Both the position numbers and the translations under genes were made by a program. A DNA stretch of 64,000 nt from Scenedesmus sp. PABB004 (lineage: Eukaryota): assembly GCA_014905635.1 (NCBI GenBank), contig JABVCE010000004.1, positions 992,001 to 1,056,000 of the forward strand, written 5' to 3'. This document shows, one piece after another, positions 3,291 to 57,296 of the stretch (position 1 is the stretch's first letter; the number at the start of each line of letters is the position of its first letter). A model generated the notes under the pieces. It was not told the origin of the DNA. It was given only the letters and a program-made list of their open reading frames with translations, and ran no database searches.

Positions 3291-4349
3291 TCACGCAGCG
3301 CCGCGCGCTGCGAGCGGGCCCGCGGCGGCGGCGGCGCCCGCGGGCTGCTTGCCGGCGCCGCCGGCGGCGGCCCCGGTCGCGGGCGCGTCGTCGATGAACG
3401 CCGCCGCGTCCGCGCCGCCGCGCGGCCCCTGGTCCCCGGGGCGCGGCAGGTCGTCGTCGGCGTCCTCCGCGCCGTCGTCGGCGTCGCCGCTGCTCAGCGG
3501 CGAGCTCGTACCGCTGTGGTAAACGCTCGGGCAGTCAGAGCCCGCCTCTGAGGCGGCGCCCGCGCCGCTGCCGCAGGCCTGCTGCCCCTGCTGCCCCTGC
3601 TGCTGCTGCTGCTGCTGCGGCTGCGCCCCCGCCGGCTGCTGCTCCTCCTCCTCGGCCAACGCGTCGTCCGCCAGCGCGTGGCACCGCACCGACTGCGCGC
3701 GGCGCAGCGCCGCCTGCAGCAGCTTGAAGCTGCCCCCGCTCCTCGCCACCTCGCCGGCGGCCTCGCGCACCGCCGCCGCGACGCCGGCGGCCCCGGGCCG
3801 GACCTGCGGCGCGCGCAGCGCAGCGGGACGGACGGACGTCGGCGGCGGCGCCGGGCGGCCCCCCGCTGAGCCTCGCGCGCCGCTGCCCCCGCCCCCCGGC
3901 CCGTCGTCGCCCGCACACTACTGCCACATTCGTTCATTCTTTTGCCGTCCCTTGTCACCTTTGCAGCGACGTATTGAACCTTATCGAGCAGCTGCCCCGC
4001 CTCCCGGCCCGCCGCGCCCCGCACGGCGTCCAGCAGCCCGGGCATGTAGCGCAGCGCCGGCGGCACGCCTGCGCGGGGCGGGGCGCGGCGGCGCCGCCGC
4101 GTCGGCGGCGCGGCCCGGAGCGCGGCTGCTCTCTGCGCGCCGCGCTGCGCGCTGTGCGCTGCGCCCACCCACCCTTGGGCCACATGGCAAAGCGGTACTC
4201 CACGTGCGTCGACGGCGAAATCGCGCCGGGGCCCGCCGGCGCGAGCCGCCGCAGCTCCCAGCTGCCCTCCAGCGCCGACATGAGACCCTGCACCGCGCGG
4301 GCAGGAGAGAGGCGAGGGGCGATTCCGTGGGCCGGGGTCCGGCAGCGCG

Positions 4350-25500: not shown

Positions 25501-25572
25501 GCTGGGCGGGGCGTCCAGCGCGCAGCAGATGGTGGCGCCCGCGGGGCAGGGGGCGCTGTCAGTCTCGCCCAT
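22566..25572 (-). CDS. arsJ: ArsJ-like organoarsenical efflux MFS transporter with Cys-rich N-terminal extension
   Basis: YLLFTTTDGAVRMIVLLH, FYELAGVVTNL, GVAKDLTKLGGK, TGWKNSMKGVGYFIG, LSAARFFLFGSRDCWFEVPLP, FAVNSAVHSYLI, VGFYYFANAGGRLAGT. Exons join in phase, including two GC donors. TGTAA at 22524-22520. Confidence 0.9.
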
Positions 25573-25880
25573 GCTGCCGGCTGTCTGACCGCGTGGAGGG
25601 AGCGGCGAGCTGCCCAGCGCGGCAGGCGCGCACTGGCCGAGTTCCGAGACCCGGGACGCATATGCCGCCCCCTCGATTCCCGTCAGCCCCGCGACACACC
25701 GCGCGACGCCGCTGCCGCCGGACCGACACCGCGATCGCCCCGCCGCCGCACGCACCGCGCCGTGCCAGCAGTGCCGCCCGCCGTGGCCGCTGCCGCTGCC
25801 GCTGCCGCTGCCGCCGCGCCCGCACGCGCCGCCATGCCGGTCAGGGTCGCGATCAACGGCTGCGGCCGCATCGGTGAGAT
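25130..25880. repeat. Inverted repeat, left arm (arsJ exons 1-2, bidirectional promoter, orphan GAPDH exon 1 at 25834-25873 on +)
   Basis: Near-identical reverse complement of 28018-28750. Confidence 0.92.
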
Positions 25881-26092
25881 TACAGACGTGGCGTCCGGCC
25901 CACGTGTTGAGGCTGCCGCAAGTGCCGGCGCCTGGTCAACCGCAATGACAGAGTTCAGGGCGCGACGCCGGCGCGCTGGTGCGGAGTTTGGTGTCTTGGT
26001 TGTTGGTTGGTTCCACGCGCTGCTCGCAACCGGGCTGGCTCCACGACCCGCCGCGTCACTGCCACGCGCCGGCGCTCATGTGCCGGGCCGCG

Positions 26093-26135
26093 TCACGCCT
26101 GGCCCTTGGCCACGATGGCCGCGAGGTCGACCATG

Positions 26136-26168
<33 letters not shown>

Positions 26169-28064
26169 GCGTAGATCTTGACCATGCTGCCGTCAATCAC
26201 CTGCAGAGCGCCGTCCAACGCGGCGGCGCGGCGGCGCCGGCGGCGTCAGCGCGCGCCTGTCGGCGCCCTCTGTGCGCGAGGAGCGGCGGCCTCACGCGCC
26301 TGCCCGCGCGCCCGCCCCACCTGCGTGCACGCCGCGTCCACGATGGAGCTGCGTGCGTCGTTCACGTAGTCGGTGCTCACCAGCGGCCGCTCCTCAAAGC
26401 CCAGGATGCCGCGCAGGTAGGTCGCCGACGCCTCCTGCGGTGTGGTGTGTGGGTGTGGGTGTGGGTGTGGGTGTGGGTGTGGGTGGAAGCCGCGTGCGTG
26501 GCGCGGCGCGGCGGCTGGCGCCGCGCCGCCGCGCCTTGAGCAGCGCGTTGACCTCCTCCGCGCTGGTGCCGCGCTTGACCTCAAACACGCAGTCCGTGAT
26601 GGAGCTGTTGGTGAGCGGCACGCGCACGGCGAGGCCGTTGAGCTTGCCCTTGAGCTCAGGGAAGATCAGGGCGATCGCGGTCGCGCTGCCCGTGCTCGTG
26701 GGCGCGAGGTTGACCAGCCCCGACCTGCGCGCGCGCGCGCGCGGGGCGGGCGGGCGGCGGCCGCGAGGTCGGACGGCGGCCGCGCCGTCGCGCCCCCGCG
26801 GCTGCGCCCCGCGGCGCGGCGCGGCGCGGCGGCGCCCCGCGCGCGCGCACCGCGCGCGGCGCAGGTCTGTCTTCTTGGTGTTGGGTGCGTCGACGAGCGT
26901 CTGCGTGTTGGTGAGGTTGTGGATGGTCGTGATGCAGCCGTGCACGATGCCGAGCTTCTCCTGGATGACCTTGACCACCGGCGCGAGGCAGTTGGTCGTG
27001 CACGACGCGGCGGTGACGATGTCGTCGACCTCAGGCTTGTACAGGTGCTGGCGCCAGTCACGGGCGGGCGGGTGGGCGGCCGGGCGGGTGGCGGCGGGCG
27101 GCGGCGGGCAGCGGCGGCCGGCGTGGGGCGGCGCGGCGGCGGCCGGCCGGCGCGGCGCCACGCGTGCAGCTGCCGATCGGGCGGCGGCGGCGGCGGCGGC
27201 GGCGGCGCACGTCGTTCACGCCGACCACGACGTTGAGCACGGGGTTTGGGTCCTTGACCGGCGCGCTGACCACGACCTTGCGCACGCCCTTCTCAAAGTA
27301 TGGCGCCAGCGCGGCGCGCGTGAGGAAGGCGCCCGTGCACTCCCAGACCTGGTCCAACTTGCCCAGGCCGGCATAGTCCAGCTGCACCGGCGGCAGCGCG
27401 GGCGGCAGCGGCGGCGCGGCGGGGCAGGGTCGCCCGGCGCGGCCGGGCGCGCGGCCGGCGTGGCGCGCGGGGGCAGCGCACGGCGCCGCACCTCGGCCGG
27501 CGTCTTGGCCTGGGTGTAGGGGATGCGCGCCACGCGCTCGCCAGCCGTGACCACGATGCAGCCGCCCTCCACGGTCACACCGTGCCCCGCCCAGGTGCCT
27601 GCGCCGCGCGCCGGCGCCCGGTGAGCGGCGGTGAGCGGCGGCGAGCGGTCGCGGCTGCGCGAGGCTCGGCGGCAGCGGCGCCCGCGCACCGTGCACGCTG
27701 TCAAACTGGATGAGGTACGCGGTGGACTCGGCGGACGCGAGGTCGTTCAGGTGCACAAACTCAAACTCGCCCGGCCGGTCGAACGCCACCCGGAACGCGA
27801 GGCGGCCTGCGGCGCGCGGCGCAGGTGCGCGGCACGCAGTGCGCGGCGCGCGGTGCGGTCTCAGCGGCGGCGGCATCAGGCGGCGGGGGACTGCACCCTG
27901 CTGGCCTGCTGCGGGGCGTGCTGGTGGTGCTGCTGCCGCTGCTGCTGGTGCCGCCTCTTGCTGCTGCCGGTACTTCGCCCCTGCGCGCGGGATCTGGGCC
28001 CTCCACGTGTGTTATGCATCTCACCGATGCGGCCGCAGCCGTTGATCGCGACCCTGACCGGCAT
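26093..28064 (-). CDS. Glyceraldehyde-3-phosphate dehydrogenase, ArsJ-associated type
   Basis: [102 protein letters not shown]. These resemble bacterial ars-operon GAPDH more than GapA/GapC. TGTAA at 25884-25880. Confidence 0.92.
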
Positions 28065-28750
28065 GGCGGCGCGTGCGGCGCGGCGGCAGCGGCAGCCGCC
28101 GCGGCGGGCGTCACTGCTGGCACGGCGCGGTGCGTGCGGCGGCGGGGCGATCGCGGTGTCGGTCCGGCGGCAGCGGCGTCGCGCGGTGTGTCGCGGGGCT
28201 GACGGGAATCGAGGGGGCGGCATATGCGTCCCGGGTCTCGGAACTCGGCCAGTGCGCGCCTGCCGCTGGGCAGCTCGCCGCTCCCTCCACGCGGTCAGAC
28301 AGCCGGCAGCATGGGCGAGACCGACAGCGCCCCCTGCCCCGCGGGCGCCACCATCTGCTGCGCGCTGGACGCCCCGCCCAGCTCGCGGGAGGGCCTGCGC
28401 TGCCGCTTCCCCGGCGCAGGGGACGTGCCAGCGTCCGTGTGCGGCAGCACCGTGTGCTGCACGCCGCCGCCGGGCGCGGTGCGCCGCGCCCGCTGCTGCC
28501 GCTGCCGACGCGGCTGCGCCGCTGCCGCTGGAGGCTGCCCCGCGCTGCTGCTGGCCCCGGCGCCAGGGGGGGCAGCTGGTGCCGTCACAGCTCACGCCGC
28601 GCGCTGCCACCGCGGCACGCGCAGGATGAGGTAGGGGACTGCTTCGCGGTCGTGGACGCCGCAGACCGGGCCATCTATCAGAGCCCCAGCTATGAGGCGC
28701 AGCACCAGAGGTGCGCGCGCCGCTAGGGGCAGCAGAGGGGGCAGGGGGGC
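28018..28750. repeat. Inverted repeat, right arm (GAPDH exon 1, bidirectional promoter, PGK-like exons 1-2)
   Basis: Near-identical reverse complement of 25130-25880. Confidence 0.92.
28065..28310. promoter_or_regulatory. Putative bidirectional promoter between GAPDH and PGK-like (second copy at 25573-25833)
   Basis: 246 bp between divergent ATGs at 28064 and 28311. Confidence 0.7.
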
Positions 28751-30424
28751 GTGCGGCAGCCGCGCACAGCTCAGCCTCGCCACCGCCGCCGCCGCCTGGC
28801 AGGCTCGCGCAGGCGGGTGCGTCCAGCACCCTCGACAGCTGCATTGAGACCCTGCTGTCGCCGCGCCTGGACCTGGCGGCGCTGCCAGCGGGCGCGCTGC
28901 GCGGCAAGCGCGTGCTGCTGCGCGCCGACCTCAACCTGCCGCTCGGGCCGGGCGGCGGCGTGACCGACGCCACGCGGCTCGAGTCGCTGCTGCCGACGCT
29001 GCGGCTGCTGCTGGCGGGCGGCGCGCGCGTCGCGATCGCGTCGCACTTAGGCCGGCCTGAGCCGGCGCGCCAGAGCGAGGAGGAGATGCGTCGGCGCTTC
29101 AGCCTCGCGCCCGTCGCCGCGCTGCTGGAGCGGCTGCTGCCGGCCGGCGCGTTCGCGGGCCTGGCGCCCGACTGCGTCGGCCCCCAGGCCGCCGCGGCCG
29201 TCGACGCGCTGCAGCCCGGGCAGGTGCGGGTGGGCAGCGGCAGCGGCGGCCCGCGCCGCCGACGCCGTTGCCGACGCGCTGCCGCCGCTGCCGACACGCC
29301 GCCGCCGCCGCTGCGTCGCGGCAGGCGTGCCTGCTCGAGAACCTGCGCTTCCACGCGGGCGAGGCGAGCAACGACCCTGCCTTTGCGGCGTCGCTCGCAG
29401 CGCTGGGTGACGTGTGCGTGAACGACGCGTTCGGCGTCGTCCACCGCGACCAGGCCAGCGTCACGGTGCGCGGCGCGGCCGCCGCCGCGCCGCTGCCGCA
29501 CGGCCGCCGCTGCGCGACTGCAGGCGCGGCCGCCGACGCGGCCGCCGCCCGCTTGCCCGCGCGCGCAGGGCGTGCTCTGCCACCTGCGCGGGTACCCAGG
29601 GATGCTGCTGCGCGCGGAGCTGCGCCACCTGCACGGCGTGCGCGCCGCGCCGGCGCGCCCGTTTGCTGTCGTGCTGGGCGGCGCCAAGGTGAAGGACAAG
29701 CTCCCCGTGCTGGCCGCCCTGATCGCGCAGCAGCACGCGCCCGACCTGCTGCTCGTCGGCGGCCGCATGGCGTTCACCTTCCTCGCCGCCGAGGGCGTCG
29801 CCGTGGGCGCGACCCAGGTCGAGGGCGAGTGGTTGCAGGCCTGCCGCGACATGCGCGGCGCGGCGGCGGCGCGCGGCGTGCGCCTGCTGCTGCCGCGCGA
29901 CGCGGTCGTCGCGCGGTCGCTGGACGACGACCGCGGCTGCTGCACCGTGCCGCTCACGCGCGGCTGCTGCAGCGCCGACGCGCCGTGCGTGCCCGCGGGT
30001 GAGCGGCCAGTCACGCGCGCGCGCTCGCCGGCCGCGCGCGCACGTCGCTCAGCGCGCCCCGCCCCGCCGCGCGCCGCGCCGCGCAGGCTGCCACGGGCTG
30101 GACATTGGCCCGGCGAGCGCCGCCGCGTTTGCCGAGGCGCTGGTGGGCTGCCGCACCGTCTTTTGGAACGGCCCGATGGGCCGCTTCGAGGTGCCCGGCT
30201 TTGCCGCGGGCACCGCCGCGCTCGCGCGCGCCGTGGGCGCCGCGACCGAGGCCGGCGCGACGACCGTGATCGGCGGCGGCGACTCGGTCGCCGCGCTCAA
30301 CCAGCTGCGCCCGCGGCCGGCGGTCAGCTTTGTGAGCACCGGCGGCGGCGCCAGCCTGGAGCTCATCCAGGGCCGCCTGCTGCCGGGCCTGCGCGCGCTC
30401 GCCGACGACGGCCGCGCAGCGTGA
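28311..30424 (+). CDS. Phosphoglycerate kinase-like protein with Cys-rich N-terminal module
   Basis: [71 protein letters not shown]. Exons 28311-28478 and 28625-28710 splice in phase to 28803. TGTAA near 30436. Confidence 0.9.
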
Positions 30425-37412: not shown

Positions 37413-38116
37413 ATGCAGCCCGACCAGCACGCACAGCAGGAGCAGCAGCAGGAGCCACCGCCCGGCGATGGCGCGGCGCCCGCGGGCAGCGAAGCCGCCG
37501 CCACCGCCCGCGAGCAGCAGCAGCAACCGCCACCCGGCGCCGGCGGCGCGGCGCCGGACGGCGGCAGCGCGCCGGCGCCGCCGGCGCCGCCGGCGTACAG
37601 CCTGGACGCGCGCGGCAAGATCGAGAACTACGACGAGGCCGACTGGTTTGTGCCGGCCGACCCGCCCTTCAAGCGCCGCGCCGGCGTCGCCGCGGCGATG
37701 GCGGGGCCGACCAAGCCGCATATCTGGAAGCGCGTCAAGCAGCTCGTCGCCGCGGAGAACTACGCCGCGCTGCCCGCGGGTGCGGCGCGGCGCGGCTGCC
37801 TGCGGCGCGGCCGGGCGCGGCCTGCGACGCACGCGGGCGGCCGCCCGCCGCCGGCGCCGACGCCCACGCGGCGTCGGCGCGGCCGCCGGCGCGCGGCGCC
37901 GCAGACGTGCCGACGCACGCGAGCCTGGACGCGCCGCCGAGCATGTACCCGGCCAAGGCCTACTGCGACATCACCGGCCTCGCCGCCCCCTACACCGACC
38001 CGCGCACGCGCCTGCGCTACGCGGGCGCCGACGCGTTCCGCGCCGCGCGGAGCCTCACCGCCGACGAGGTGCAGGCCCGCCTCGCGGTGCGCGGCGCGGC
38101 GACGGTGCTCAAGTGA
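37413..38116 (+). CDS. IES6: INO80 complex subunit C / Ies6 (YL1-C domain)
   Basis: WKRVKQL, SLDAPPSMYPAKAYCDITGLAAPYTDPRTRLRY. One intron. TGTAA near 38386. Confidence 0.9.
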
Positions 38117-38615: not shown

Positions 38616-41395
38616 TCACTCCGCGGGCACGGTGGCGGCGCCGACGCCGGCGGCGCCGACGCCGGCGGCGGCGCGGCCGCCGCCGCCCCGCTGCGCCGCG
38701 CGCGCAGCCTCCTGGTGCAGCGCCTCGGCCGCCTGGATGTGGGCAACGAGCGCGGCGCCCGCGCGGCCGCCCATGAAGCGGTCCTGGTCGTAGCCCAGCA
38801 GCAGCTGCCACGCGTCGCGGGGGTACCTGCAACGGCAGCAGCGGGCGGGACGCCGCGGGTGTCTGCGGCCGGCGCGCCGCGCGCTCGCGGCGCGGTGACG
38901 AGGCTCGCGGCGCGGCCCCGGCGCGCTCACAGGTCAACGAGCGGCAGCGCCACGTCCTCCAGGCACTGCCGGCCGTGGCGCTCGTCCTCCTTGATGTGGA
39001 GCTCCCAGTAGCCGCCCACGTCCGCGCCCAGGCCGCACCGCCGCGCGGCCGCGAGGTACGTCTGCGCGCGCAGCGCCGCCGCGGCGCGCGGCGCGCGTCG
39101 GCCCCCTCTGCCGCCGGCGCCGCCCGCGCTGGCGCCGCAGCAGCAGCGTCAGGCAGCCGGCCGCGCGCGGCCGCGCGGCGGGCCTTATACACGGAGGGCC
39201 CGTTGATCTCGAAGAACGTCAGCGCGCCGGCGTAGCGCAGGTAGTGCGCGCGGCGCTCGGTGAGCAGGAAGTTGGCGTTGGCGCCCGCGAGCCAGGCCCA
39301 GGGCAGCAGCGACAGGTAGCCCTCCTCGCCTGCGCGGCGGCGGCGCGTGCACCGCGCCGGCGCGGTGCGGCGGCGGCGGCGGCGGTGGCCGCGCGGCTGG
39401 CAACGCGCGCGGCGGCGCGCGCGCACGCGGGCGGAGAGGGGGCGGCGGTGCGCCGCGCCGCGCCGCACGCGTGTCGAGGCCGAGCTGGGCCATCATGGTC
39501 TTGTAAAAGGTGGAGTGCTTGCGGGGCAGCCGGCCGCCGCCATACTCCTCCATGAGCACCCTGCCGCGGCGCGCGGCGACGCGCGCGGCTGCCTGAGCGC
39601 AGGCGGTGTGAGCGCGGCGCGCGCGGCGGCGGGCGCGGCGCGGCGGCGGGCCGGCCGCCGGGGCAGCGGCAGCGGCAGGAGAGGCGAGACCTGAAGATGG
39701 CGCAGGAGACCTCGTTGGCGGCGCCCGCGCACACGCGGCTCTGGCGGCTCGCCTCGACCAGGCCGTCCACGCTGCCCACCGCCAGCAGGTGCGCGTAGCC
39801 CTGTGTGTGCAGCGGCGGCGGCAGCAGCCTGGAGGTTGGGCAAAGCTGGCGACGACGTGCCGCGCGCGCGCACCAGCGGGCCCATCTCGTTTGCCACGTA
39901 CTCCTGCGCGCGGCTGAGCGGCGGGTCGACGTCGCGCGCAAACCTGCGGCCAGGGCGGTGGGCGGTCAGAGCCGGCACCTGCGCCGCACCGTGCCTGCGC
40001 CGCGCCGCAGCCCCGCCGCACCGCGCACGCACCGCGCGCGCAGCGCCTGCTTGATCTGCTCCGGCGTCAGCGCGCGGTACGCCTCGGCGCCCGCGAGCGG
40101 CGCGGCGAGGTCGCCGGGCCCGCCGGCGCGCTCGCACTCGGCGGCCGCCGCGTCAGCCATCTGGCCCGCCTCCCAGGCCTGCCAGGGCTCCTCGATCGAC
40201 TCGCGCAGCGCAGCCAGCCACAGGCTGCGCTCGTTGGCATACGCGGCAAGGTCGTCGTACCTGGACGCGGCGCGGCGCGGCTGGCCGCGTGAGTGACTGG
40301 GGCGGCGGCGCACGTCCGGGGGGCTGCGCGCGGGCGCGGCGGCAGGCCAGAGCCAGCTGCAGCGAAAGCGCGGCGGCGCGCACCAGAAGTGGGAGAGGCG
40401 GTTGATCTTGTAGAGCGTGCGCTGCAGGAAGAGGTGCGCGGCCGACGCGGCCGGCGCCTCGCCCGTGGCCGCCGCCACCGCGCCGCCGCCCGCCGCCGCG
40501 AGGCCGTCGGCGGAGCCGAGGCTGCTGCCGCGCCCGGCGAGCGGCGCGCGCTCGCCGTCCCCGGTCGCGGCCTCGGCGCCAAACAGCGCGTCCCAGTCGA
40601 CCTCGCAGCCGTCGTCGCCGTCGTCAGGGCAGCCGCCGGCGGCAGCGGCGCCGCCGCCACTTGTGGGCGCGCCGCGCGGCGCGGCGGCCGGCGCGGCGGC
40701 GCCGCCGCTCGCGCGCGCCGCGCCCACCGCGCCCATGCCGTCGCTCCAGTCGGCCATGCGCGCAAACGCGTCGAGCGTGCTCAGCGGGCTCGGCTGCGGC
40801 GAGCTCGAGCTCGACCCGCTGCCCGGACCGGCCGCCCAGGTGGGGCTGGCGGCGGGGCTGGCGGCGCGGGCAGGGCTCTCGCCCCGAAACGCAACGCCCA
40901 CGGCCGCCGCGACGGCGCCCTCAACGGCCGCCGCCGCCCAGCGCGCGCCCGCGTCGCCGGCCGCCAGGCGCTTGTCCAGGTCGGGCGTGGCGATGAGCTG
41001 GTCCAGCAGGCCCTCCTGAGCTGCGTACTGCGGCCGCGTGCGCGGGCGGGCACGGGCACGGCGCGCTGGTGTCCGGCCGCTGCGGCGCAGCACGGCAGCG
41101 CTCGCGGGCGCCGGCGGCGCGCAGCAGCGAGCGGCAAATGGCAGCGCACCATCTGCAGCGCCTGGCGCGACAGGGGCGTGGCGCAGGCCACGAGGTAGGC
41201 AGCGGCGCGGCCGGGCTGCAACGCCGGCGCCGCTGTCGCGGGCTGCTCGGCCGCGAACGCGGCCACGCGCACCGCGCGCGCACGGCCTGGGGGCGAACCC
41301 GCCGGTCGCGACGCGCAAAGAGCGCGCGGGCGTGGCGCGCCGCCGCCGGCGGGCGCGGCGGCGGCCGCTCGGGCTTGGGCGGCGCGACGGAGCAT
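38616..41395 (-). CDS. Heme-oxygenase-like diiron enzyme (iron-containing redox enzyme family), cyanobacterial type, with transit-like leader
   Basis: HLFLQRTLYKINRL..FWYDDL, DGLVEASRQSR, VLMEEYGGGRLPRKHSTFY, YAGALTFFE, YWELHIKEDERHG. The E...H, E and H..ED.RH pattern fits diiron ligands. Confidence 0.8.
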
Positions 41396-41633
41396 CGTGG
41401 GCGCGCCGGCGGCGTGTGGGTGGGGCGGAGGGTGTGAGGGCAGGCCGCACGGGCTCCGGGATTCATGCTGGCCGACGCCGTCGCGTGACGACGCGCGCAC
41501 GCGCTGCTCCACCGCGCGTTCTCCCACAGCCTCGCAGCTGCCCTCGTTGCCCCCGCCGCCGCATCGCTCGCCCGCAGCCCCGCCTCGGCCGCCTGCCGCA
41601 CGCGCGCGCACTCGCGCGCGTAGCGCACGTACA

Positions 41634-43098
41634 ATGCGCGCCGCCGGGTCAGCTGCGCCAGCCACGCGCAGCGCCGCCGCGCCGCCGGCCGCCGCCGCCA
41701 GCGCCAGCGCCGGCGGCCGCGGCGCGCGCGCGCGGCCAGCCGCGGCGGCGGCCGCCGCCAGCGCCGACGGCAACGGCAACGGCCGCGCCGCGGCGCTGAG
41801 CCAGGAGGCGGAGGTCTTTGTCTGCCCGGTGCGCGCGGCGGGCGCTCCCGCGGCCCCGCCAACGCGCAGCCCACCAGGCCCCGCGCACCCGGCGCCGCGC
41901 ACCCCCAGGAGGAGAGCCTGCTCTACAGCCAGTGCATTGAGAAGCTGGTGCTGAGCAGGCGCGCGCGCGGCACGCTGCGGCGCGGGCTGGCCGGGCAGCG
42001 CGCGCAGCGCGGTGCGCGCCGCGCGCGCCGCCGCCGCCGGCAGCGGCCCACGCGCGCCGCCGCCGCCGCCGCGCCCGCGCCGCCGCGCAGGCCGGGCGCG
42101 CCGGCGCGGCTCGTCGAGTTTGGCGCGGGCGACGGCGGCCCGGTGCTGGCGGCGCTCGCGCGCGCGCCGCGCGGCCGGCACACCGTGCACGCCTACGAGC
42201 TCGGCGGCCAGGCGGCGGCGCTCGCGGCCGCGCGCGCGGCGTCGGCGGGCCTCGCTGACGAGTACGTCGTGCACCACGGCTGCGCGTGGGCGGGCTTTGC
42301 GGCCCAGCGCGCGTCGCCGGGCGCCGCGAGCTGCCTCATCTCCAACCCGCCCTACCTCCCCGCGCCAGGCGCGCGCGCGCGCGCCGCGCACCGCGCGCCG
42401 CCGCGCGCCGCCGCGCAGCACGGGCGCAGCTCGCGCGGGTCTCGCGCCGCGGCCACGACCTCGGCCGCCGCCGCTGCCGCCGCTGCCTGGCGCAGACGCC
42501 GACATCCTCATGCCGGACCTCTGGGGCGGCCCCGACGGCGCGGGCCTGACGCGGCAGCTGCTCAGCACCGGCTTCGACACCGCGATGCTCATGGTGTCGG
42601 GTGCGCTGCGCAGCGCACCAGCTGCCCGCGCGTGCGCGCAGCAGCACGGCCCGCGCCGCCGCCGCCCGCGCCGCCGCCGCCCGGCCGCCGCCGCGATTGC
42701 GGCGCCCGCCGCGCGCTCGCTGCCGCCGCCGCCGCGGCGCCAGCCGTCTCCAACCCCGCGGCCACGCTGCGCCATGCGGCGGCCGAGGGCTACGCCGTCG
42801 CCGACTTCGCCGTCGCGCCGCTGGCCTTTGGGCGGTACAGCAGCGAGCCCAAGGTGTCGGCCTGCATCGCGGTCATGGCCCGCCGCGGCGAGGCGTTCTA
42901 CAGCGAGGCCAGCCGCACCTACCTGCTCGCGGGTGCGCGGCGCGGGCGCGCGCCGGCGGGCAGCCGGTGCCGGCGTGCCAGGGCCGGCGCCGCCCGCCGC
43001 CGCCGCCGCCGCTCGCAGGTGTGCTCTTTGAGAAGCGCAGCGGGGCTGCGGGCGGGCCAGACCTGCGCGACGAGCTGCTGCGCGTGCTCACCGCCTGA
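41634..43098 (+). CDS. Class I SAM-dependent methyltransferase (HemK-like, NPPY motif), cyanobacterial type
   Basis: FVCPEESLLYSQCIEKLV, VEFGAGDG (motif I), VHAYEL, LISNPPYLPAP, LWGGPDG, FGRYSSEPKV, YLLAGVLF. Ala/Arg-rich leader; two GC donors. Confidence 0.85.
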
Positions 43099-48492: not shown

Positions 48493-49014
48493 CGGGGCGC
48501 CGGCGTCGCCACGGAGTGTCAGTGTATGCATAATCCAACACACACAGTCGGATAACCAGTGGTTTGCCGCGGCCGTGACACTTTCGCGTGCAGGAGCACG
48601 CACACGGGGTCATCGCCAATCTGAACCACGTGGCGGAGCTGCGTGCCGGGTGTCGGGTGCTGGTATCGGTCATGATCTTGAGATGGTATGGCCTACAAAA
48701 TCATGCTGTGGGGCGCACCACCACTTCTGCTGCGCAGCAGCTGCCCCGCCTGCGGCACGAGCGGCTGCAGCTGCGGGCTCGGGTGAAGGATCGTGCGGGA
48801 TCGGCTCGCTTCACAGCAAGCTCGCTGTGAACAGGAGATGGGGCGGAGGGGGGGGTGCCAATGCAGGACTGGGAGTTCATGTTTGGCAGGTGCGCGCGCC
48901 AGCTCGGGCGTCTGTTCGCGTCTGTCCTATCGGTGGCGTGCCAAGGGCCAAGATTCGTAAATCTCTGCTGCTCCGGAGCAACCGGCCTGCCGCTGCACCA
49001 GCCCGAGGCCGCCC

Positions 49015-50557
49015 TCAAAACCACGCCACGTGCGCGGCCGCGCGGCGCAGCAGCGCGTACGCAGCCTCCAGCTCCCGCTCGCCCACGCCGCCGCCGCCGC
49101 CGCCGCCCGCCGCCCGCGCCGCGAGGGCCGCGGCGTCCAGCAGCTGCCCCAGGCCCGGCTGCTGCCCGGCCAGCGCGCGCCGGACGACGCCGAGCTCCTC
49201 GCGGTGCCGCGCGAGCGCCGCCTCTGTGTGCTCGTTGGCGGGGTGGCTTTCGCGAATGGAGCGCTCCCACTCCTCTGCGCCGGGGGGCGGCGGGCGCTCG
49301 CCGCGGCGGCGGCGGCGGCGCGCGAGCGGGCAGGGGGCAGGCAGCGCGCCGCGCGGGCCGCCGCCGCACCCGCGTGCGCGAGCTTGCAGACGTGCTGCCG
49401 CACCGTCGGCTGCATGAGGAAAGCCAGCAGCTCGTCGCTGAGCCGGCCCGCCGCGTCGCCGCGCGGCGGCGGCACGCGCGCGGCGCCGCCCGCCGCCGCG
49501 GCGCCGCCGCGCGCGCGGCCCTCCGAGAGCCAGACCGTCAAGCAGCTGCGCGGCGCGGCGCTCGGCAGGACGCGGTGCAGCATCCGCGTCGATGAGAAGA
49601 GGACAAGGCGGTCTGCGAGCGGCTCGACGTCCAGCGGCGGCGCGGGGAAGGGGTACAGGCGCAGCTGCCCGCCGTGCTCGGGCCGCCAGTTCGCGTTGAG
49701 GTACAAGATGGCCTGCGGAGGAGGAGCAGGCGGCCCCGCACGGAGGGGCAGGCGGCGCTAGGCCCCCGCAGCACAGCCGCGCAGGCGCAGCAGGGCGCGG
49801 CAGGGCGCGGCAGGGCGCAGCAGGGCGCCGCACCGTGACGCGGCGGCCGTCGAGGCCGTCGTCCGAGTCAAAGTGCATGGGGAAGCATCCTCCGCCCCCT
49901 GCGAGCGTCGGGCGGCGGGGCCGGGCGGCTGGCTGCCACGCAGCCAGCGCAGCGGCGCTGCGGCCCCGCGCACAGGTGCGCACCCTCATTGTGCTGCAGC
50001 TTGATCGCGTGCGACTCTAGCCGCAGCGCCGGCAGCAGCAACGAGAGCATCGTCGCGAGCGTGCGGTCGCCGTCGAGCTGCGCCAGCAGCGGCGCCGCGC
50101 GCCGCACGGCCGCGTCGAGGCTCAGCTCGGCCTCCATAATCGCCGCCTTGGCCAGGAGCGACGTCCCGCCGCGCGCGTCGACCAGGTGCGTGTGGTTGGC
50201 GTGCATCAGCCCCCGCGCGTGCAGGCCGCGCAGCTCCGCCTCGAGCGCCGCCGCCGCCGGCGCGCCGAGCACGCCGTCGACGACCGTGTGGCCGCGCGCC
50301 GCGAGGGCCTCGCACACGGACGGCGTGAGCGCCGCCTGCAGCCGCTCGAGCGGCAGCCGCTGCGTGTGCTGTCGCCGCCACTGCTGCTGCTGCGGCGGCT
50401 GGTGCTGGTGCTGCTGGTGGTGGTGCTGCTGCGTCGCCGCCGCCGCTGCTGCCGCTGCCGCCGCTGGCGACGCCGCGCCCGGAGCGGCCGCGTGCGCCAG
50501 CAGCAGCAGGCCCGGCGGCGGCGCCGCGCCGCCTCGCCGCAGCGCGGCGCGCATCAT
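49015..50557 (-). CDS. 2OG-Fe(II) oxygenase (prolyl-hydroxylase/EGLN-like)
   Basis: FPMHFD (HxD), ILYLNANW..EHGGQLRL, DRLVLFSSTRMLHRVLPS..PR. Confidence 0.88.
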
Positions 50558-50848
50558 TATCGTGGCTTGATGATGGGCTGCACGGCACGACGCGGCGGTG
50601 GACACCGGGCGTGTTGTGCGGCACGGCCGGCGCGCGCGGCGCCGGGGCCCCGGCGCTTGTGCCGCAGCGGCGGCAGCACTGACAAAGACCCGGCGCGGTG
50701 GGGCACCGGAAGCCGGCCGGTACGACGCGCGTGGAGAGACAAGCGGGACTCGCGATCGCGACGCGCAGGCACCAGGGCAGGCACTTGACTCGATCATCTG
50801 CCCGCTCTCACCGCGCGGCGCGCCTCGCCGGGCCTGGGCGCGCCCGGC

Positions 50849-52009
50849 ATGGCGCTGCGATCGCTGCGCTCGCGCTGCTGCGCCGGCGCGCTGCGCTGGC
50901 AGCTGGCCGGCCAGGCGGCGGCGGCGGAGCAGCGGCCGGGCGCGGCGCACCCGCTCTTTGCGCAGCTGCTGGCCGGCCTGCGCCTGGCGTCGGGCGCGGC
51001 CTTCCAGCCCAGCCGGCTGTACCCGAAGCAGCACAGCGCGGGCGAGGCGGCGGCTTTCTGGGGGCTGCTCGCGCTGAACGTCGGCGCCGCGGCCGCCGCC
51101 AAGGCGGGCCCGCCGGAGCTGCGCGAGGCGCTGCTCACGCACGCGCGCGCGTCGGTCGACGCGCTGGCGGCGGGGCGCTGGCACACGCTGCTGGCGAGCG
51201 GCGTGGTGCACACGAGCGCGGTGCACTGCGGCCTCAACCTGCTGATGCTGCTGCTCTACAGACGCACGCAGCCGCTCAGCGCGCGCGAGGTGCGGCGCGC
51301 GCGCCCCGGCAGCGGCCGCCGGCGGCGACGCATGCGCGCCGGCGAGGCCCCGCGCGTCGCCGCCGCCGTCCGCAGCTGCTGGTGCTGTACGCGCTGGGCA
51401 GCCTGGCGGGCAGCCTCACGCACGTGGCGTGGTGCTGGTGGGACGCGTCAGGTGCGCAGGCAGCAGCCGCGCCGGCGGCCGCGCGCGCCGCATGGGCCTC
51501 CTCACCGCCCGCGCCGCCCCGCCGCGCGCGCCGCCGCCCCGCAGGCCCCGAGTTCGGGCTGCGCTACGCGGCCAACACGCCGGGCGTGCTCGGCGCGTCG
51601 GGCGGCGTCGCCGCGGTGTGCGCGTTCAAGGCCGCGCTGCAGCCGCTCGGCGTGCCGCACCTCGGCGTGCCGCTGCCGCTGCCGATCGTGCTCGCGACCG
51701 CCGTGTACTGCTGCACCTACGTCCGCGAGGCGGTGCGCGCGCGGGGACGGCGGGCGGCGCGGGCGCGCGGGCGCCGCCGCGGCGGGCGTGCGCGGCGCGT
51801 GCAGGGCGGGGCGCCGAGTGCCTCGTCGCGCCGAGGCTGACGCGGCGGCTGTCGCCGCCCCCCGCTGCGCCCGCCACATGCGCCCCGCGCCCCGGGGCGG
51901 GGCGGCGCAGGAATACAGCGACTACAGCGGCAAGTTTGGCGCAGCCGCGGTCGGCGTGCTCGCCGCGCTCTTCGCGGTCGGCGCGGGGCGGCGGCGCGTG
52001 TTGTGGTAG
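50849..52009 (+). CDS. Rhomboid-family membrane protein (catalytic His apparently absent)
   Basis: GRWHTLLASGVVH..HCGLN, LYALGSLAGS, VLGASGGV. Confidence 0.75.
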   Translation: MALRSLRSRCCAGALRWQLAGQAAAAEQRPGAAHPLFAQLLAGLRLASGAAFQPSRLYPKQHSAGEAAAFWGLLALNVGAAAAAKAGPPELREALLTHARASVDALAAGRWHTLLASGVVHTSAVHCGLNLLMLLLYRRTQPLSAREVRRARPGSGRRRRRMRAGEAPRVAAAVRSCWCCTRWAAWRAASRTWRGAGGTRQVRRQQPRRRPRAPHGPPHRPRRPAARAAAPQAPSSGCATRPTRRACSARRAASPRCARSRPRCSRSACRTSACRCRCRSCSRPPCTAAPTSARRCARGDGGRRGRAGAAAAGVRGACRAGRRVPRRAEADAAAVAAPRCARHMRPAPRGGAAQEYSDYSGKFGAAAVGVLAALFAVGAGRRRVLW

Positions 52010-52152
52010 CTAGCGTGGAGCTTCTGGGGGGGCTCGCTGCAACATGCGGGCCCGTGCGCAGGGCTCGACCGCAGGGCTCAAGCGGACACCGCGCCGCCGG
52101 CGCATGAAAGTGGGCCGCCGCCGCTCCGCTGCCCCGCCTTTTCTGCGTGTCC

Positions 52153-55100
52153 ATGATCAGGAGCACCCGACGCCTCGCGATGCTGGCCCGCAACGCCACC
52201 CGCGCCGCGGCGAGCCAGGTGCGACCGGCGCCCGCGGCGCCGACGAAGCTCCGCACCTCTCATTGGTCGCGCTCGTATCGCGCGCGCTCACAGGCGCGCC
52301 GCCGGCCGCAGGTGAAGCCTGGCGCCGCCGCCCGGGCGCTCCCATGCCTGCGCAGCAGCAGCACCGCCGCGCGCCCTGGCGTGGCGCGCAGTCTGCTCGC
52401 CGTGCCGCGCGTCGCGGAGCACCTGCAATCCTTTGCCAGCCGCCGCTCGGTCGCGGCCTCAGGTGCGCGGGCGGGGCCGGCGCGGGCGGCGGCAGCAGCG
52501 GAAGCCGCCGGAGTCTCCGCCGCGCCGCGGCAGCCGCATGGCGCTGCAGCGCGGCGGCCCGGATCGGGCGAGCAGTGCGAGGACCTCCCGGCGCCGCGCC
52601 GCCCCCGGCAGCGCCCCGCATGGCGAGCCGCCGGCCCGCACGGCCGTGCGCCCGCGCTGCCGACCGCCGGCCGCCGACCGCGCCCGCGCCCGCCGCTGCC
52701 CGCCCCGCCCCCAGCGGCCGTCGCCGCGGCGGAGGAGACCTTCACCTACCAGGCCGAGGTGCGCCGCGCCGCGCCCCGGCCGCCCCGCGCCGCAGCCACC
52801 GCGTGGCTGCGGCCGCACGCGCAGCCTTGCCGGCGCGGCCGCGGCGGCGGCCGGCGCGCGCTCACGCCCTGTGCTGCTCCGCCCCGCCTGCCGCCCCCGT
52901 GGGCGTGCAGGTTGACCGGCTGATGGACATGATCGTGAACAGCCTCTACTCCAACCGCGAGGTCTTCCTGCGCGAGCTCATCAGCAACGCGAGCGACGCG
53001 CTCGACAAGGTGCGCCGCCCCCCGCGCCCCGCGGCAGCGGCAGCCGCGCCGGCGGCGGCAGGCGGCAGCGGCAGCGACAGGCAGCAGCAAGTGCCCGCAT
53101 CGCGCATGGGGCGCTGTGGCGCGCGGCAGGCGCTCGAGCCCGCCGCCGCCCGCCGCCCGCCGCGTCGTGGTGCCGCAGGTGCGCTTCGTCGGCCTCACCG
53201 ACCCCAAGGCGCTGGAGGGGCGTGAGGAGCTGGAGATCCTCATCAAGGCCGACAAGGACGCGCGCACGATCACGATTGAGTGAGCGCCGCGCCGCGCCGC
53301 GCGCGCCGCCGGGGCGCCGGGCTGCAGCGCGCCGCGCGCGTTGCGTCGTGTGCGCGCCGCCGCGCGCGCCGCCCGCCGCTGGCACCGGCGGTGAGGAGAG
53401 AACCGATGACCAAATCACTCGCCGAACACAACCGCGTGTGGAACTCCTTTTCAGCCTTGTCTGAGCCGTGCCCCCGGGCTGGGCTGCGCGCGCGCGCGTG
53501 CCTTGCTGTGTCGTGCGCTTGCGCGTGTCGCGCCTCTCGTGCCGTGTGTGCTGGCGCGGGGATGACCAAACAACGAGTACCATCAAATTCCGACCAACCC
53601 GTGGCGGACTCCTTTCAGCCTTGTCTGAGCCCCAGCACACTCACCGCGTGTCGTGCTGCCTGCCTGCCCGCCTGCGCGCCCGTGGTGGCCCGCACGCCGC
53701 CGCCGGCCTGACCGCCCCCGCGCCGCGCCGCACGCCGCGCGCCGCCGCAGGGACTCTGGCATCGGCATGACGCGCGAGCAGCTGCTGAGCAACCTCGGCA
53801 CCATCGCGCGCTCCGGGACGCGCAAGTTCATGGAGGTGCGCCGCCCCGCCGCCGCCCCTGCCGCGCGCCGCGCCCTCCCTCCCGCCCGGCCCCCGCCGCC
53901 GCGCCGCGCCGCGCCGGGGCCGGCCGCGCCCCCGCGCGCACCCCCGCATCCCCGCACATACACACACACACTCACCCACACCCACGCCGCCGCACACGCC
54001 GCCGCCGCCGCTGCCCTGACCGCCCCAGGCGGTGAAGGAGGCCAAGGGCGACGCCAACCTGATCGGCCAGTTTGGCGTCGGCTTTTACTCGGCCTTCCTC
54101 GTCGCCGACCGCGTGAGCGTGGTGACCAAGAGCCACGAGGAGGACGCGCAGTGGGTGTGGCAGAGCAGCGTGGGCAGCCACCAGTACACGATCAAGGAGG
54201 ACGACGGCCCCGACCGCCTCGCGCGCGGCACGCGCGTCGTGCTGCACCTCAAGGCGCGTGGGGCTGGCCGTGGTTCAGGGTTCAGGGCTTAGGCTCGCGC
54301 ACACCCCGGCGGCTGGCGCGCCCCGCGCCCCGCGACGTCCGCGCGCTCACGCCGCCCAACACCGCCCCCTCCCGTGCCCCGCGCCGCCGCGCAGGAGGAT
54401 GCGGTGGAGCTGGCCGACCCGGTGCGCCTGGCCAAGCTGATCAAGCAGTACAGCCAGTTCATCCAGTTCCCCATCAAGCTCTACTCCTCGCGCAAGGAGC
54501 CCAAGACGCTCGTCGACGACGCCGCGACGGCGAAGAAGCAGGAGGAGGCGGACAAGGCCGCGCAGAGCAAGGGCGAGGAGAAGGCCGACGCGGTGCGTGG
54601 GCCCTGCCGCCGCGCCGCCCGCTGCCGCGTCCGCCCGCGTCCTCTCCCGCCCTCAACCCTCAACCCTGAACCCTGAACCCTGGCCCCAACCGCGCCTCGG
54701 CCCCCGCAGGTCGAGCCGGTGATGAAGACGGAGTACGAGGACGTGTGGGACTGGCGCGTGGAGAACGAAAACAAGCCGCTCTGGACGCGGGCGCCGCGCG
54801 ACGTGGCCGAGGCCGACTACAACGACTTTTTCAAGCAGGCGCGCGCGGCGCGGGGTTCAGAACTCGCTTTTTCTGTTGGGAGGGAGGGGTAGAGGAGGGC
54901 GGGCAGCGGGGCTGAGAGTGCGAGCGTTGAGCGGCCGCGCCCCCGCCCCCTGCGCGCCGGCGGCGCCGCGCCGACCCCGCCGCCCCCTCTGCCTGCCTGC
55001 CTCCCCTCTCTCAACGCAGACCTTTGGCGAGTTCCTCGACCCGCTCGCGCATGTGCACTTCAACGTGGAGGGCACGATCGAGTTCACGTCCATGCTCTTC

Positions 55101-57296
55101 ATCCCCGGCATGGCGCCGTTTGAGCAGCAGAACTGGGCCGCCAAGTCGCGCAGCATCAAGCTCTACGTGCGCCGCGTCTTCATCAGCGACGAGTTCGACG
55201 AGAACCTCATGCCCCGGTGAGGCACGGAGGCGCGCCGCCGCCGCGCTGGGCTCAGTGGCGCCCCGCCGCGCGGGCGGCTGCGGCCGGCGCGGCCGCGTCG
55301 CGTCGCGCGCCTCGCCGCGCGCTCCCCCGCCCACGCCTGCCTCCCCGCCCTCCGCCCTCCCTCTCCCTTCCCCTCTCCCTCTCCCTCGGCCTCCCCCTGG
55401 CGCCCTTAACCCTAAACCCTAAACCCTAGCTACCTGTCGTTCATCAAGGGCGTCGTCGACAGCAGCGACCTGCCCCTCAACGTGAGCCGCGAGATCCTGC
55501 AGGAGTCGCGCATCGTGCGCGTCATCCGCAAGCAGCTCATCCGGCGCAGCCTCGAGATGATCGAGGCCCTCGCGGCCAAGGAGGGCGGCGAGGACTACAA
55601 GACCTTCTGGGAGAGCTTCGGGCGCAACATCAAGGCGCGGCGGGCTTAGGGGCCGCGGGGGCGCGCGCCGCGGGGGCGCGCGCCGCGCGGCGGGGCAGAG
55701 GGCGGGGCCGGGCGGCGGGCCGGGGCGGGCGGCGGGGCGGCAGGGCAGGCGCCGCGCGCCGGCCCGGCGGCAGGGCGCGCGCCGCGCGCCGCGCGGCGGA
55801 GCCGGCCTCACGCGCGTGCGCGCGTGCCCGCGTGTGCGCGCGCGCAGGTGGGCGTGATCGAGGACACCGAGAACCGCGAGCGCCTGTCCAAGCTGCTGCG
55901 CTTCCACTCGTCCGTGAGCGAGGAGGGCATGACGGGCCTGGGCGACTACGTGGGCCGCATGAAGGACGGCCAGAAGGGCATATTCTACATGGTGCGGCGG
56001 ACGCGGGGGGAGGCAGGGAAAGAGGGAGGGGCAGCCGGGCAGGGGGCGAGGGGGGCAGAGAGGGAGAGGCAGGGTCCGCGCGCGGCAGCGCCCGCTCGCA
56101 GCGGCACACGCAGCGCGGCGCCCACGCCCGCGCGCCGCCGCGCCCGCGTCCGCGCCCGCACCCCCGCGCGCCGCCGCGCGGCGTTCTGCAGGCGGCCGAC
56201 AGCGTGGATGTCGCGCGCGCGGCGCCGTTTGTGGAGAAGCTCGTCGCCGACGGCTACGAGGTGCTCTACCTCACCGAGGCGATTGACGAGGCCGTGGTCA
56301 CCAACCTCGCCAAGTTTGGCGACGTGGAGCTCGTCGACGTGAGCAAGGAGGGACTCACCCTCGACAGCGACGACGCCGCAAAGGTGCGTGCGCGTGTGCC
56401 CGCGCGCGCCTGGGCTGCCGCCGCCGCCCCGCCGCCGCGCGGCGCTGCTGCCGCCGCGGCCGCCCGCGCCGCGTCGCGCGCGCAGCGCCGCGTCACGCGG
56501 CGCCGCCGCCGCCCCCGCTGCCGCCGCCCGCAGCTGGAGGAGGCGAGCAAGGAGCTCGGCGGCCTGCTGTCGTTCCTCAAGGAGTCGCTCTCGGACCGCG
56601 TCGAGAAGGTCACGCTCACGAGCCGCCTGCTCGACTCGCCGTGCGCGCTCGTGACGAGCAAGTTTGGGTGGAGCGCCAACATGGAGCGTATCATGCGCAG
56701 CCAGGCCATGGGCGACGCGCGCGCGATGGAGTACATGCGGGGGCGCAAGATCCTGGAGGTCAACCCGGGGCACGAGGTCGTGCGCGGCATCAAGGTGCGC
56801 GCGCGGCGGGGCTGCGGCGCGCAGCCCGGCACGCAGCCCGGCACGGCGCGCGGCACGGCGCGCGCCGCGGAGGCCCGCGCGCGACGCGGCCGCCCGCGCC
56901 GCGGCGCGGCCGCAGGTGCTGCTGGACGAGGACGACAAGGAGCGCGCGCGCGACCTCGCGGAGCTGCTGTACGAGACGAGCCTGCTCACGAGCGGCTTTG
57001 CGCTCGAGGCGCCCAAGGACTACGCGTCAAAGGTTTACACGCTCATGAAGATCGCGCTCGGCTACGACGCAGGCGACGCGCCCGCGGCGCCCGCGGCGCC
57101 CGCGGCGGCGGCGGCGGCGCAGGCCGCGCCCGCGGCGGCGGCGGCGGCGCCCGCGGCCGACGCGGCGGCGCAGCAGCAGCAGCCGGGGGCGGAGCCCGCG
57201 GCGGGCGGCGGCGCGGCGTCGGAGGCGGTCGAGGCGGACGTGGTGGTGGAGGGCAAGGGCGGCGACCCCTGGGGCGCCGGCGGCAAGCAGGCGTGA
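52153..57296 (+). CDS. HSP90C: Organellar HSP90 (HSP90C type)
   Basis: [86 protein letters not shown] and C-terminal DPW. N-terminal targeting peptide. Confidence 0.95.
53381..53472 (+). ncRNA. Intronic box C/D snoRNA 1 (D guide complementary to 18S rRNA GCAAGGCUGAAA)
   Basis: Terminal stem ggcaccggc/gccgtgcc; box C GTGAGGA 53391-53397; guide tttcagccttgt; box D CTGA 53461-53464. Confidence 0.8.
53546..53640 (+). ncRNA. Intronic box C/D snoRNA 2 (double guide, both to 18S rRNA)
   Basis: Terminal stem gtgtgctggcgc/gccccagcacac; box C GGGATGA 53559-53565; D' guide gtaccatcaaat before CCGA; D guide tttcagccttgt before CTGA 53625-53628. Confidence 0.85.
55403..55429. repeat. Telomere-like (CCCTAAA) repeats ending in a 3' splice site
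   Basis: cccttaaccctaaaccctaaaccctag|c. Related units at 54271-54293 and 54651-54682. Confidence 0.75.

Follow-up and report, generated by a model that had tools for sequence, protein, structure and literature searches.

At positions 38616 to 43098 of a 64,000-nucleotide stretch of the green alga Scenedesmus sp. PABB004 (contig JABVCE010000004.1, positions 992,001 to 1,056,000; hereafter the window), two genes lie head to head, one for a diiron oxidase of the heme-oxygenase-like kind (HDO) and the other for a methyltransferase (MT) with an NPPY motif. We find that the HDO and MT genes behave as one module: across 301 cyanobacterial genomes, spread evenly over the phylum, each was present (at E < 1e-20) in 39, these being the same 39, and neither was found in the other 262. 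Our best explanation, to which we give an even chance of being right, is that the two enzymes are plastid-targeted and there N-oxygenate and N-methylate one common nitrogen-bearing metabolite, giving a product that is protective under stress. Both protein families were known already; for the pairing itself we found no description in the open-licence papers and preprints searched.

Pairing of the HDO and MT genes

The two genes stand next to each other on one contig in 37 of the 39 carrier genomes, and one genome (G090) has two copies, each of them paired; in genome G294 the HDO and MT lie at two contig ends, and in G084 the MT adjoins an incomplete HDO, the full one being encoded elsewhere. 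A 3.3-Mb genome has both genes truncated side by side (G078:C1:194480-195247), as if one deletion had taken the end of the HDO and the start of the MT. The loci themselves were compared in the best 80 of at least 558 relatives (at least 588 pattern matches) from a scan of species genomes, nearly all titled cyanobacteria: the MT lies less than 1 kb from the 3′ end of the HDO gene in 75 of these, 48 being tandem, 27 convergent and none head-to-head, and four of the five remaining loci have less than 1 kb of contig left. Our initial annotation, made from the letters of the window, had placed close homologues of both genes side by side in cyanobacteria, and this was confirmed; it had also called the window pair a head-to-head pair of cyanobacterial type, of which the kinship stands, but bacterial pairs are tandem or convergent, so that the head-to-head arrangement arose in algae. 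Beyond genus-level synteny no third conserved gene was found beside the pair in the 80 loci, the best candidate being DUF3891 (15/80), which is also the only gene recurring between HDO and MT.

In algae, named MT orthologues come from Chlamydomonas reinhardtii (CHLRE_03g149750) and C. schloesseri, from Gonium, Monoraphidium, Tetradesmus and Flechtneria, and from a further Scenedesmus; the named HDO orthologues are those of C. reinhardtii (CHLRE_03g149700), Apatococcus lobatus and three species of Volvox. The Chlamydomonas genes are consecutive by their identifiers, Cre03.g149700 (HDO) and Cre03.g149750 (MT). Scanning metagenomes with an HDO pattern biased towards algae yielded 28 loci, comprising 25 HDO genes and three chance matches (L100, L105 and L110). 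The MT was reached on 15 of the 25 HDO contigs, which fall into six nucleotide groups, and was head-to-head with the HDO in all 15; nine of the other ten contigs end too near the HDO 5′ end, and the last is L102. We do not count L102 as evidence against linkage: as far as base 4004, a point within the HDO, it matches L095 at 99.9% identity, and from there on its sequence is unrelated; the contig is likely chimeric. In an intron-free, GC-rich algal contig the head-to-head pair (L104:9376-12372) has start codons about 250 bp apart, and this contig has a three-gene block in common with the window, in a changed position. Its pair adjoins HSP90C and rhomboid genes, which are also present at window 49000-57000. 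No orthologous flank genes common to the window and the more distant algal loci were seen, and the sole flank match between the window and the loci of 0.50 GC content involves different paralogues of glyceraldehyde-3-phosphate dehydrogenase (GAPDH).

A quick tree of 73 HDO proteins, with several long branches and seven algal rows built from tblastn pieces, places 16 algal-type rows in one clade (Shimodaira-Hasegawa-like approximate likelihood ratio support 99), next to which stand 52 cyanobacterial rows (90), while five intron-free, bacterial-type proteins fall outside both; of the 75 loci it omits 23 that are broken or near-duplicates, and its cyanobacterial sample is biased to the best 80 hits. 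Locus L108 falls with Chlamydomonas and Volvox (99), while the GC-0.50 group, the GC-0.63 group and L088 are placed close to Apatococcus at lower support (87-90) and are probably Trebouxiophyceae. The MT tree, which has no outgroup, splits algae from cyanobacteria at 99. Patristic distances of HDO and MT agree over the 52 cyanobacterial loci (Mantel rho 0.69, p 0.001), an agreement that linked genes of shared ancestry would show anyway. The simple reading of both trees is a single joint acquisition of the two genes by algae, which may have come from the plastid ancestor or through later horizontal transfer. Neither bacterial homologues located apart, nor incongruent phylogenies, nor a lack of linkage and co-expression in other algae, the outcomes named beforehand as telling against the initial annotation, appeared. 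Three loci (L011, L064 and L005) carry record titles of non-cyanobacterial groups (Sericytochromatia, Actinomycetota and Chloroflexaceae); in both trees, however, L011 and L064 are nested within the cyanobacterial rows, which suggests mis-binning or transfer. Both window proteins sit on longish branches, for which relaxed constraint or GC pressure may be offered as the cause.

The module also appears, by sequence comparison, to extend beyond cyanobacteria. A plasmid search returned no close copy of HDO or MT, and of its 30 distant hits we opened six loci: two, both from Streptomyces, hold an MT, a CDGSH protein and an HDO in a trio, one of these lying between SigB/SigF/SigG genes, and three of the six are without an MT. 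Both Streptomyces enzymes align to the cyanobacterial profiles (hhalign 96-97%) at about 24% identity, and seven metal ligands are visible in the Streptomyces HDO. Mycobacterium smegmatis MSMEG_1771-1773, of the SigF regulon, may be a further MT-CDGSH-HDO trio. The actinobacterial trio of 'HemK2/MTQ2 methyltransferase - CDGSH - iron-containing redox enzyme' is thus homologous in both enzymes to the pair described here, but it includes a CDGSH protein that the phototrophs lack, no CDGSH motif being found in the cyanobacterial loci, the algal loci or the window. In a Methylobacterium plasmid locus (L115:3507-7564) a longer HDO is accompanied by another kind of methyltransferase, a Rieske protein and an ATP-grasp ligase; this looks like a separate natural-product MT-HDO cluster.

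It could be argued that the two are stress genes acquired together, held by shared regulation and acting on different substrates. ChaB, DUF4142, TspO and HLIP genes occur near some cyanobacterial loci, and we take these to mark general-stress islands, which group unrelated genes; short divergent pairs are ordinary in the host genome on one comparison, since the next gene pair leftward of ours is also divergent, 347 bp apart, so that a spacing of 238 bp is in itself unremarkable here; and wider synteny is kept by relatives too, L104 having three flank genes of the window. Against this, other island genes come and go while the pair holds in 39 of 39 carriers, the 27 convergent pairs among the 75 can have no common transcript and are adjacent still, no other cyanobacterial neighbour occurs elsewhere in the window, and the flanks of the more distant algal loci lack orthologous matches to those of the window. 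We consider such an arrangement of independent genes quite unlikely.

Gene models and the two predicted proteins

Exons were joined by coordinates from reading of the sequence and then checked for open frames; each gene splices to an open frame with a single terminal stop. The predicted HDO gene (PF14518; 38616..41395, minus strand, ATG 41395, stop 38616) has nine exons (41395-41150, 41027-40384, 40260-40033, 39943-39874, 39800-39691, 39560-39469, 39329-39184, 39061-38931 and 38826-38616) encoding 625 residues, with seven GT-AG introns and one GC-AG intron, after exon 7. The predicted MT gene, for a HemK2/Mtq2-like class I methyltransferase (41634..43098, plus strand, ATG 41634, stop 43098), has six exons (41634-41828, 41909-41958, 42091-42368, 42496-42600, 42744-42932 and 43019-43098) encoding 298 residues, with three GT-AG introns and two GC-AG introns, after exons 2 and 3, so that GC donors serve 3 of the 13 introns of the two genes. 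Public proteins exist for both under consecutive tags, HT031_002013 for the HDO (P0003) and HT031_002014 for the MT (P0001). The public HDO differs from our spliced model by three residues; the public MT reads through one GC-AG intron and mis-splices another, and loses NPPY. As that motif is kept in six of seven algal MT orthologues (alignment A1), the comparison favours our GC-AG model of the MT gene, which corrects a public model that drops the catalytic NPPY motif. When each gene was searched against its own genome (40 Mb in 80 contigs, the window being on contig C35), matches came from this locus only. The window has a GC content of 72-83% over most of its length.

Between the start codons lies a spacer of 238 bp (41396..41633), which must hold both 5′ untranslated regions and the promoters. 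Among seven algal spacers, taken with rough limits, shared 7- or 8-mers were not above shuffles (16 7-mers in at least five of the seven, where shuffled spacers gave 9 on average and 18 at most), so that the bidirectional promoter proposed in the initial annotation is no more than a candidate. Each gene opens with a probable transit peptide, judged from composition: in the HDO an N-terminal extension of about 80 residues in exon 1 (41150..41395, minus strand), the first 45 of which are Ala/Arg-rich with nine Arg and no acidic residue, and in the MT one of about 60 residues (41634..41813, plus strand), its first 45 likewise Ala/Arg-rich with one acidic residue. Similar extensions are present in five of six other algal-clade HDOs and six of seven other algal MTs examined. 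We infer that both proteins are plastid-targeted, although their composition would be compatible with the mitochondrion too. The closely spaced start codons, the full intron sets and the Ala/Arg-rich leaders had all been noticed in the initial annotation, as had a motif I for S-adenosylmethionine (SAM) binding and NPPY in the second gene, and the spliced models and residue counts bear out each of them.

The public HDO protein P0003 scores 81.3 bits against PF14518, above the gathering cut-off of 28.9 (a cyanobacterial orthologue reaches 102.4), and two HDO exons in the window match this family; no NCBIfam family was found for the HDO. The six core ligands, E-x9-H, E and H-x3-D-x2-H, are all present in the window protein, where alignment places E438 and H448 in core helix 1 (39515..39547, equivalent to RohS E124 and H134), E504 in core helix 2 (39208..39210, RohS E190) and H534-x3-D538-x2-H541 in core helix 3 (38975..38998, RohS H218, D222 and H225), all on the minus strand; the six are listed for RohS in a published account (PMC13133933). 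A 'seventh' ligand, E412, lies in the auxiliary helix (39753..39755, minus strand) and corresponds to RohS E98 and SznF E189. All seven are invariant in the 64 rows of our HDO alignment. In the same account the seventh Glu is reported for RohS and SznF only and is tied to O2 activation in the substrate-free enzyme (PMC13133933), and SznF is elsewhere described as a 3His/4carboxylate enzyme (PMC13108848). The substrate-triggered class of UndA, BesC and AetD, which requires that there be no protein-derived seventh ligand, was set aside because E412 is present and invariant.

Profile and fold comparisons point the same way. The best profile matches in the PDB are RohS (9e-22), SznF (2e-18) and HrmI (6e-8). 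A structure model of the cyanobacterial orthologue from locus L011, not of the algal protein itself (365 residues, predicted local distance difference test score (pLDDT) 89.6), is a helical bundle of the heme-oxygenase-like fold, for which Foldseek ranks HrmI, RohS, SznF and FlcD in that order, HrmI being best (template-modelling (TM) score 0.78/0.84, 17% identity) and UndA, BesC, AetD and CADD weaker (query TM score 0.43-0.49). The HDO ligands seen in the initial annotation are thus upheld, whereas the likeness to UndA, BesC and CADD gives way: by its ligands and profile matches the HDO belongs with the seven-ligand N-oxygenases SznF and RohS and not with UndA, BesC and CADD, and would catalyse an N-oxygenation. 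There is no C-terminal cupin domain, the model having no strands and the PDB match covering only residues 177-345 of the 471 of SznF. The window protein carries a low-complexity insertion of about 140 residues in exon 2 (approximately 40450..40880, minus strand), in frame and absent from cyanobacterial HDOs; a comparable insertion occurs in the algal fragments P0045, P0064, P0093 and P0142. Eleven full-length HDO relatives (P0026, P0030, P0033, P0044, P0051, P0052, P0061, P0082, and also P0028, P0029 and P0048) have lost several iron ligands; PF14518 is still matched by seven of eight such relatives tested, and they are possible pseudo-enzymes.

The MT is, on its predicted structure (pLDDT 94.0), a HemK-like NPPY methyltransferase of class I fold with HEMK2 as its closest match. 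On the plus strand lie a family motif F-x-C-P-E-E-S spanning intron 1 (41814..41917), which matches the N-terminal motif of Streptomyces HemK2/MTQ2 proteins, a SAM-binding motif I (residues 90-97, 42113..42136), its E-F-G-x-G invariant in alignment A6, and NPPY (residues 167-170, 42344..42355), invariant in all 59 rows of that alignment. The best sequence matches are HemK/PrmC, with the GGxDG segment included. The model is closest to human HEMK2 (Z 19.1, root-mean-square deviation (rmsd) 2.4, 181 residues aligned), and next come Mtq2 (Z 18.3, rmsd 2.0, 162), PrmC (17.5, 2.9, 176), TrmM and AerE, which methylates peptide amides (16.9, 3.2, 207), with the small-molecule enzymes MmtN, PsiM and Asc-Orf2 ranking after them (Z 15.9-14.8). 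Assignment to the PrmC, PrmB or HemK2-MTQ2 curated families was rejected, as the first MT member scores below every NCBIfam cut-off compared (TIGR03534, 24 against 199.1; TIGR03533, 18.6 against 229.7; TIGR00536, 24 against 115.5); TIGR00537 matches 35 of the 59 members weakly (best E 8e-8), and a PrmC model matches all 59 weakly. In exons 4-5 (window 42600-42750 and 42830-42870) the window MT carries Val at a position that is Tyr or Phe in 58 of 59 rows, and it is without the Trp before the last helix that is common to the 13 other algal and some cyanobacterial rows.

A proposed shared pathway and its alternatives

We propose that HDO and MT form one ancient stress-linked module. The diiron centre of the HDO (three His and four carboxylates) would bind O2 and hydroxylate or further oxidise a nitrogen of the substrate, be it amine, amide or guanidine, and the MT would transfer a SAM-derived methyl group onto a nitrogen of that substrate too, either ahead of the HDO step or following it. 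A precedent for such a methyltransferase and HDO is found in SznE and then SznF, which act in that order on one nitrogen-rich substrate (PMC11705231). Since the pair has no constant third companion gene in cyanobacteria or algae, we expect its substrate to be a common metabolite, perhaps a polyamine or a compound derived from Lys, Arg or Gln; the product may be a small molecule, both N-methylated and N-oxygenated, by which cells are protected from drying or oxidative damage. In Streptomyces electrons could be supplied by the linked CDGSH iron-sulfur protein and in phototrophs probably by ferredoxin, which would fit import into the chloroplast. A single ancestor of these algae would have acquired the two genes jointly, from a cyanobacterium or a near relative of one, and rearranged them head-to-head, a layout retained since.

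The pair resembles SznE/SznF (streptozotocin, Streptomyces achromogenes) in outline and is not a member of that system: both combine a methyltransferase with a seven-ligand PF14518 HDO, in which all seven SznF ligands align, but the window-type HDO has about 20% identity to SznF and lacks both the cupin that serves as its N-nitroso rearrangement domain and a surrounding cluster, and the likeness of SznE to our MT is one of role in outline. RohS (azomycin) and the lysine N-oxygenases HrmI and BelK are stand-alone HDO N-oxygenases, as our protein would be, RohS being the best sequence match and HrmI the best over the whole length of the fold; they differ in that identity is 17-22%, in that HrmI has six ligands, and in that the HDO here is paired with a HemK2-type MT. 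A link to stress is suggested by DtpC, an HDO-fold protein of Acinetobacter baumannii (alike in fold), which limits peroxide in dried cells and needs its metal ligands to do so; its gene is co-transcribed with catalase, and its authors do not choose between iron binding, scavenging and small-molecule synthesis (PMC13232832, 2026). The ChaB, DUF4142, TspO and HLIP genes close to some cyanobacterial loci, and the stress sigma-factor genes on either side of one Streptomyces trio, are a genomic context that would fit a stress role. PF14518 is listed among the stress-related families of a desert alga (PMC5509433), and Cre03.g149700 is reported as expressed, in a module that peaks during heat recovery (Zhang 2022, PMC9106746).

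Several observations weigh against this pathway. The HDO is only 17-22% identical to each of the HDOs characterised so far; enzymes of this kind that share their primary ligands are described as diverging in function, and HrmI, the best fold match, as a six-ligand enzyme (PMC13108848). The main text of the DtpC paper mentions no methyltransferase (PMC13232832). Carriers, by their record titles, include freshwater genera such as Pseudanabaena and Anabaena, so the link to habitat is loose. Cre03.g149750 was not found in the PMC9106746 supplement (10 of 12 files, one of them in part), and its absence beside g149700 there counts weakly against tight co-expression; the supplements of PMC11252407 and PMC8226298 (11 of 14 files in one of them) gave no match to the pair. 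Mutants of g149750 show no clear defect in the light, photoautotrophy, rose bengal or low-iron screens of a study in which drying was not screened (PMC9110296). Lastly, the closest folds to the MT model are protein and peptide methyltransferases, which favours a protein substrate.

This last point leads to the main alternative, that the module modifies protein: the MT might methylate a Gln, Asn or Lys of the HDO itself or of a target that they share, and the HDO might oxidise that side chain or be matured or regulated by the methylation, acting as a DtpC-like iron/peroxide sink or a CADD-like self-sacrificing enzyme, for both of which published precedents exist. The ranking of HEMK2/Mtq2, PrmC and AerE among the folds, the HemK/PrmC sequence matches with GGxDG, the weak PrmC matches of all 59 members, and the strict one-to-one pairing and joint decay of HDO and MT all agree with this. 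HEMK2 and Mtq2 were, moreover, solved as complexes with Trm112, and as no Trm112-like partner is conserved at the MT-HDO loci, the HDO could fill that role. The N5-glutamine methyltransferases HEMK2/N6AMT1/Mtq2 and PrmC share class I fold, motif I, NPPY and GGxDG with our MT, which differs from them in scoring below the curated cut-offs, in its patchy distribution, in having no Trm112-like neighbour and in lying always beside an HDO. However, the seven-ligand set is otherwise reported only in small-molecule N-oxygenases (PMC13133933), and the dedicated CDGSH protein of Streptomyces suggests turnover. HemK-family folds also serve small molecules, as in Asc-Orf2 and in AprI, a HemK-family enzyme with a small-molecule substrate (PMC9338882), so that the MT fold does not decide between protein and metabolite. 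We regard protein modification as somewhat unlikely.

A narrower role would make the MT an auxiliary methylase of a plastid translation factor or ribosome (PrmC- or PrmB-like), or a DNA methylase, with the HDO as a passenger. Yeast mtq2 mutants are sensitive to paromomycin, which keeps a translation role faintly alive. Cre03.g149750 is annotated as 'DMA2, putative DNA methylase, HemK family', and only paromomycin, whose target is translation, strongly depletes its mutants (log2 -3.6, -3.1 and -6.6, from supplement columns counted by hand); they are mildly down at +10 degrees (-1.7) and with a single compound (-1.6), and in light and photoautotrophy screens their values change by no more than about 0.6 (PMC9110296). 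That library carries a paromomycin-resistance marker, however, and the neighbours of g149750 in the paromomycin cluster are mostly unrelated, such as a dynein heavy chain, a NimA kinase and a scavenger receptor, though one is an ABC-F factor (PMC9110296), so that loss of marker expression would be the simpler cause. In addition, MT scores fall far under the PrmC and PrmB cut-offs (24 against 199 and 18.6 against 230), the fold alignment begins at PrmC residue 86 and leaves the release-factor-binding N-terminal part unaligned, and 262 of 301 cyanobacteria do without the MT gene. A translation or DNA methylase role is in our view very improbable.

Neighbouring genes and wider meaning

Beside the HDO, whose stop it approaches to about 500 bp, ends a gene with a YL1_C domain (window 37413-38116, plus strand; Ies6/INO80 subunit C-like), which forms with a transporter-like gene (from 37065 leftwards, minus strand) the second divergent pair, 347 bp apart. 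Further away, at window 24500-27700 on the minus strand, two exons encode a GAPDH of ArsJ-associated type (NF033735 being the best NCBIfam model), and a frame beside it resembles, by eye only, a major facilitator superfamily transporter, so that this may be a bacterial-type arsenate-resistance cluster. An arsenic role for the HDO-MT pair, prompted by this gene about 12 kb away, was dropped because no cyanobacterial locus family pointed there. Long near-identical stretches in several frames around the GAPDH gene (window ~24700-25900 and 27750-30300) suggest local duplication or an assembly repeat.

In its widest form our proposal is of a two-enzyme N-oxygenation and N-methylation pathway common to actinobacteria, cyanobacteria and green-algal chloroplasts, kept head-to-head in algae since before the split of Chlorophyceae and Trebouxiophyceae. 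It would make an undescribed protective metabolite, such as an N-methyl hydroxylamine, hydroxamate or hydroxyguanidine, acting by metal binding, radical quenching or nitric oxide release. We put this forward tentatively, as possible but with rather less than an even chance.

No description of the HDO-MT pair was found in the open-licence papers and preprints searched, including for Cre03.g149750 and DMA2. The HDOs named in the reviews and papers cited here are all bacterial, most of them in natural-product clusters, and HDO chemistry has repeatedly proved new; the pair is a minimal, strictly paired HDO module in eukaryotes, linked across distant algal lineages while the flanks changed. The label of Cre03.g149750 as a DNA methylase is one of homology alone. 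With Cre03.g149700 and Cre03.g149750, and with transformable cyanobacteria too, the pair gives a handle in a model alga on how an HDO protects from drying and, if our proposal is true, it would be an HDO pathway of eukaryotes that is readily open to genetics in Chlamydomonas.

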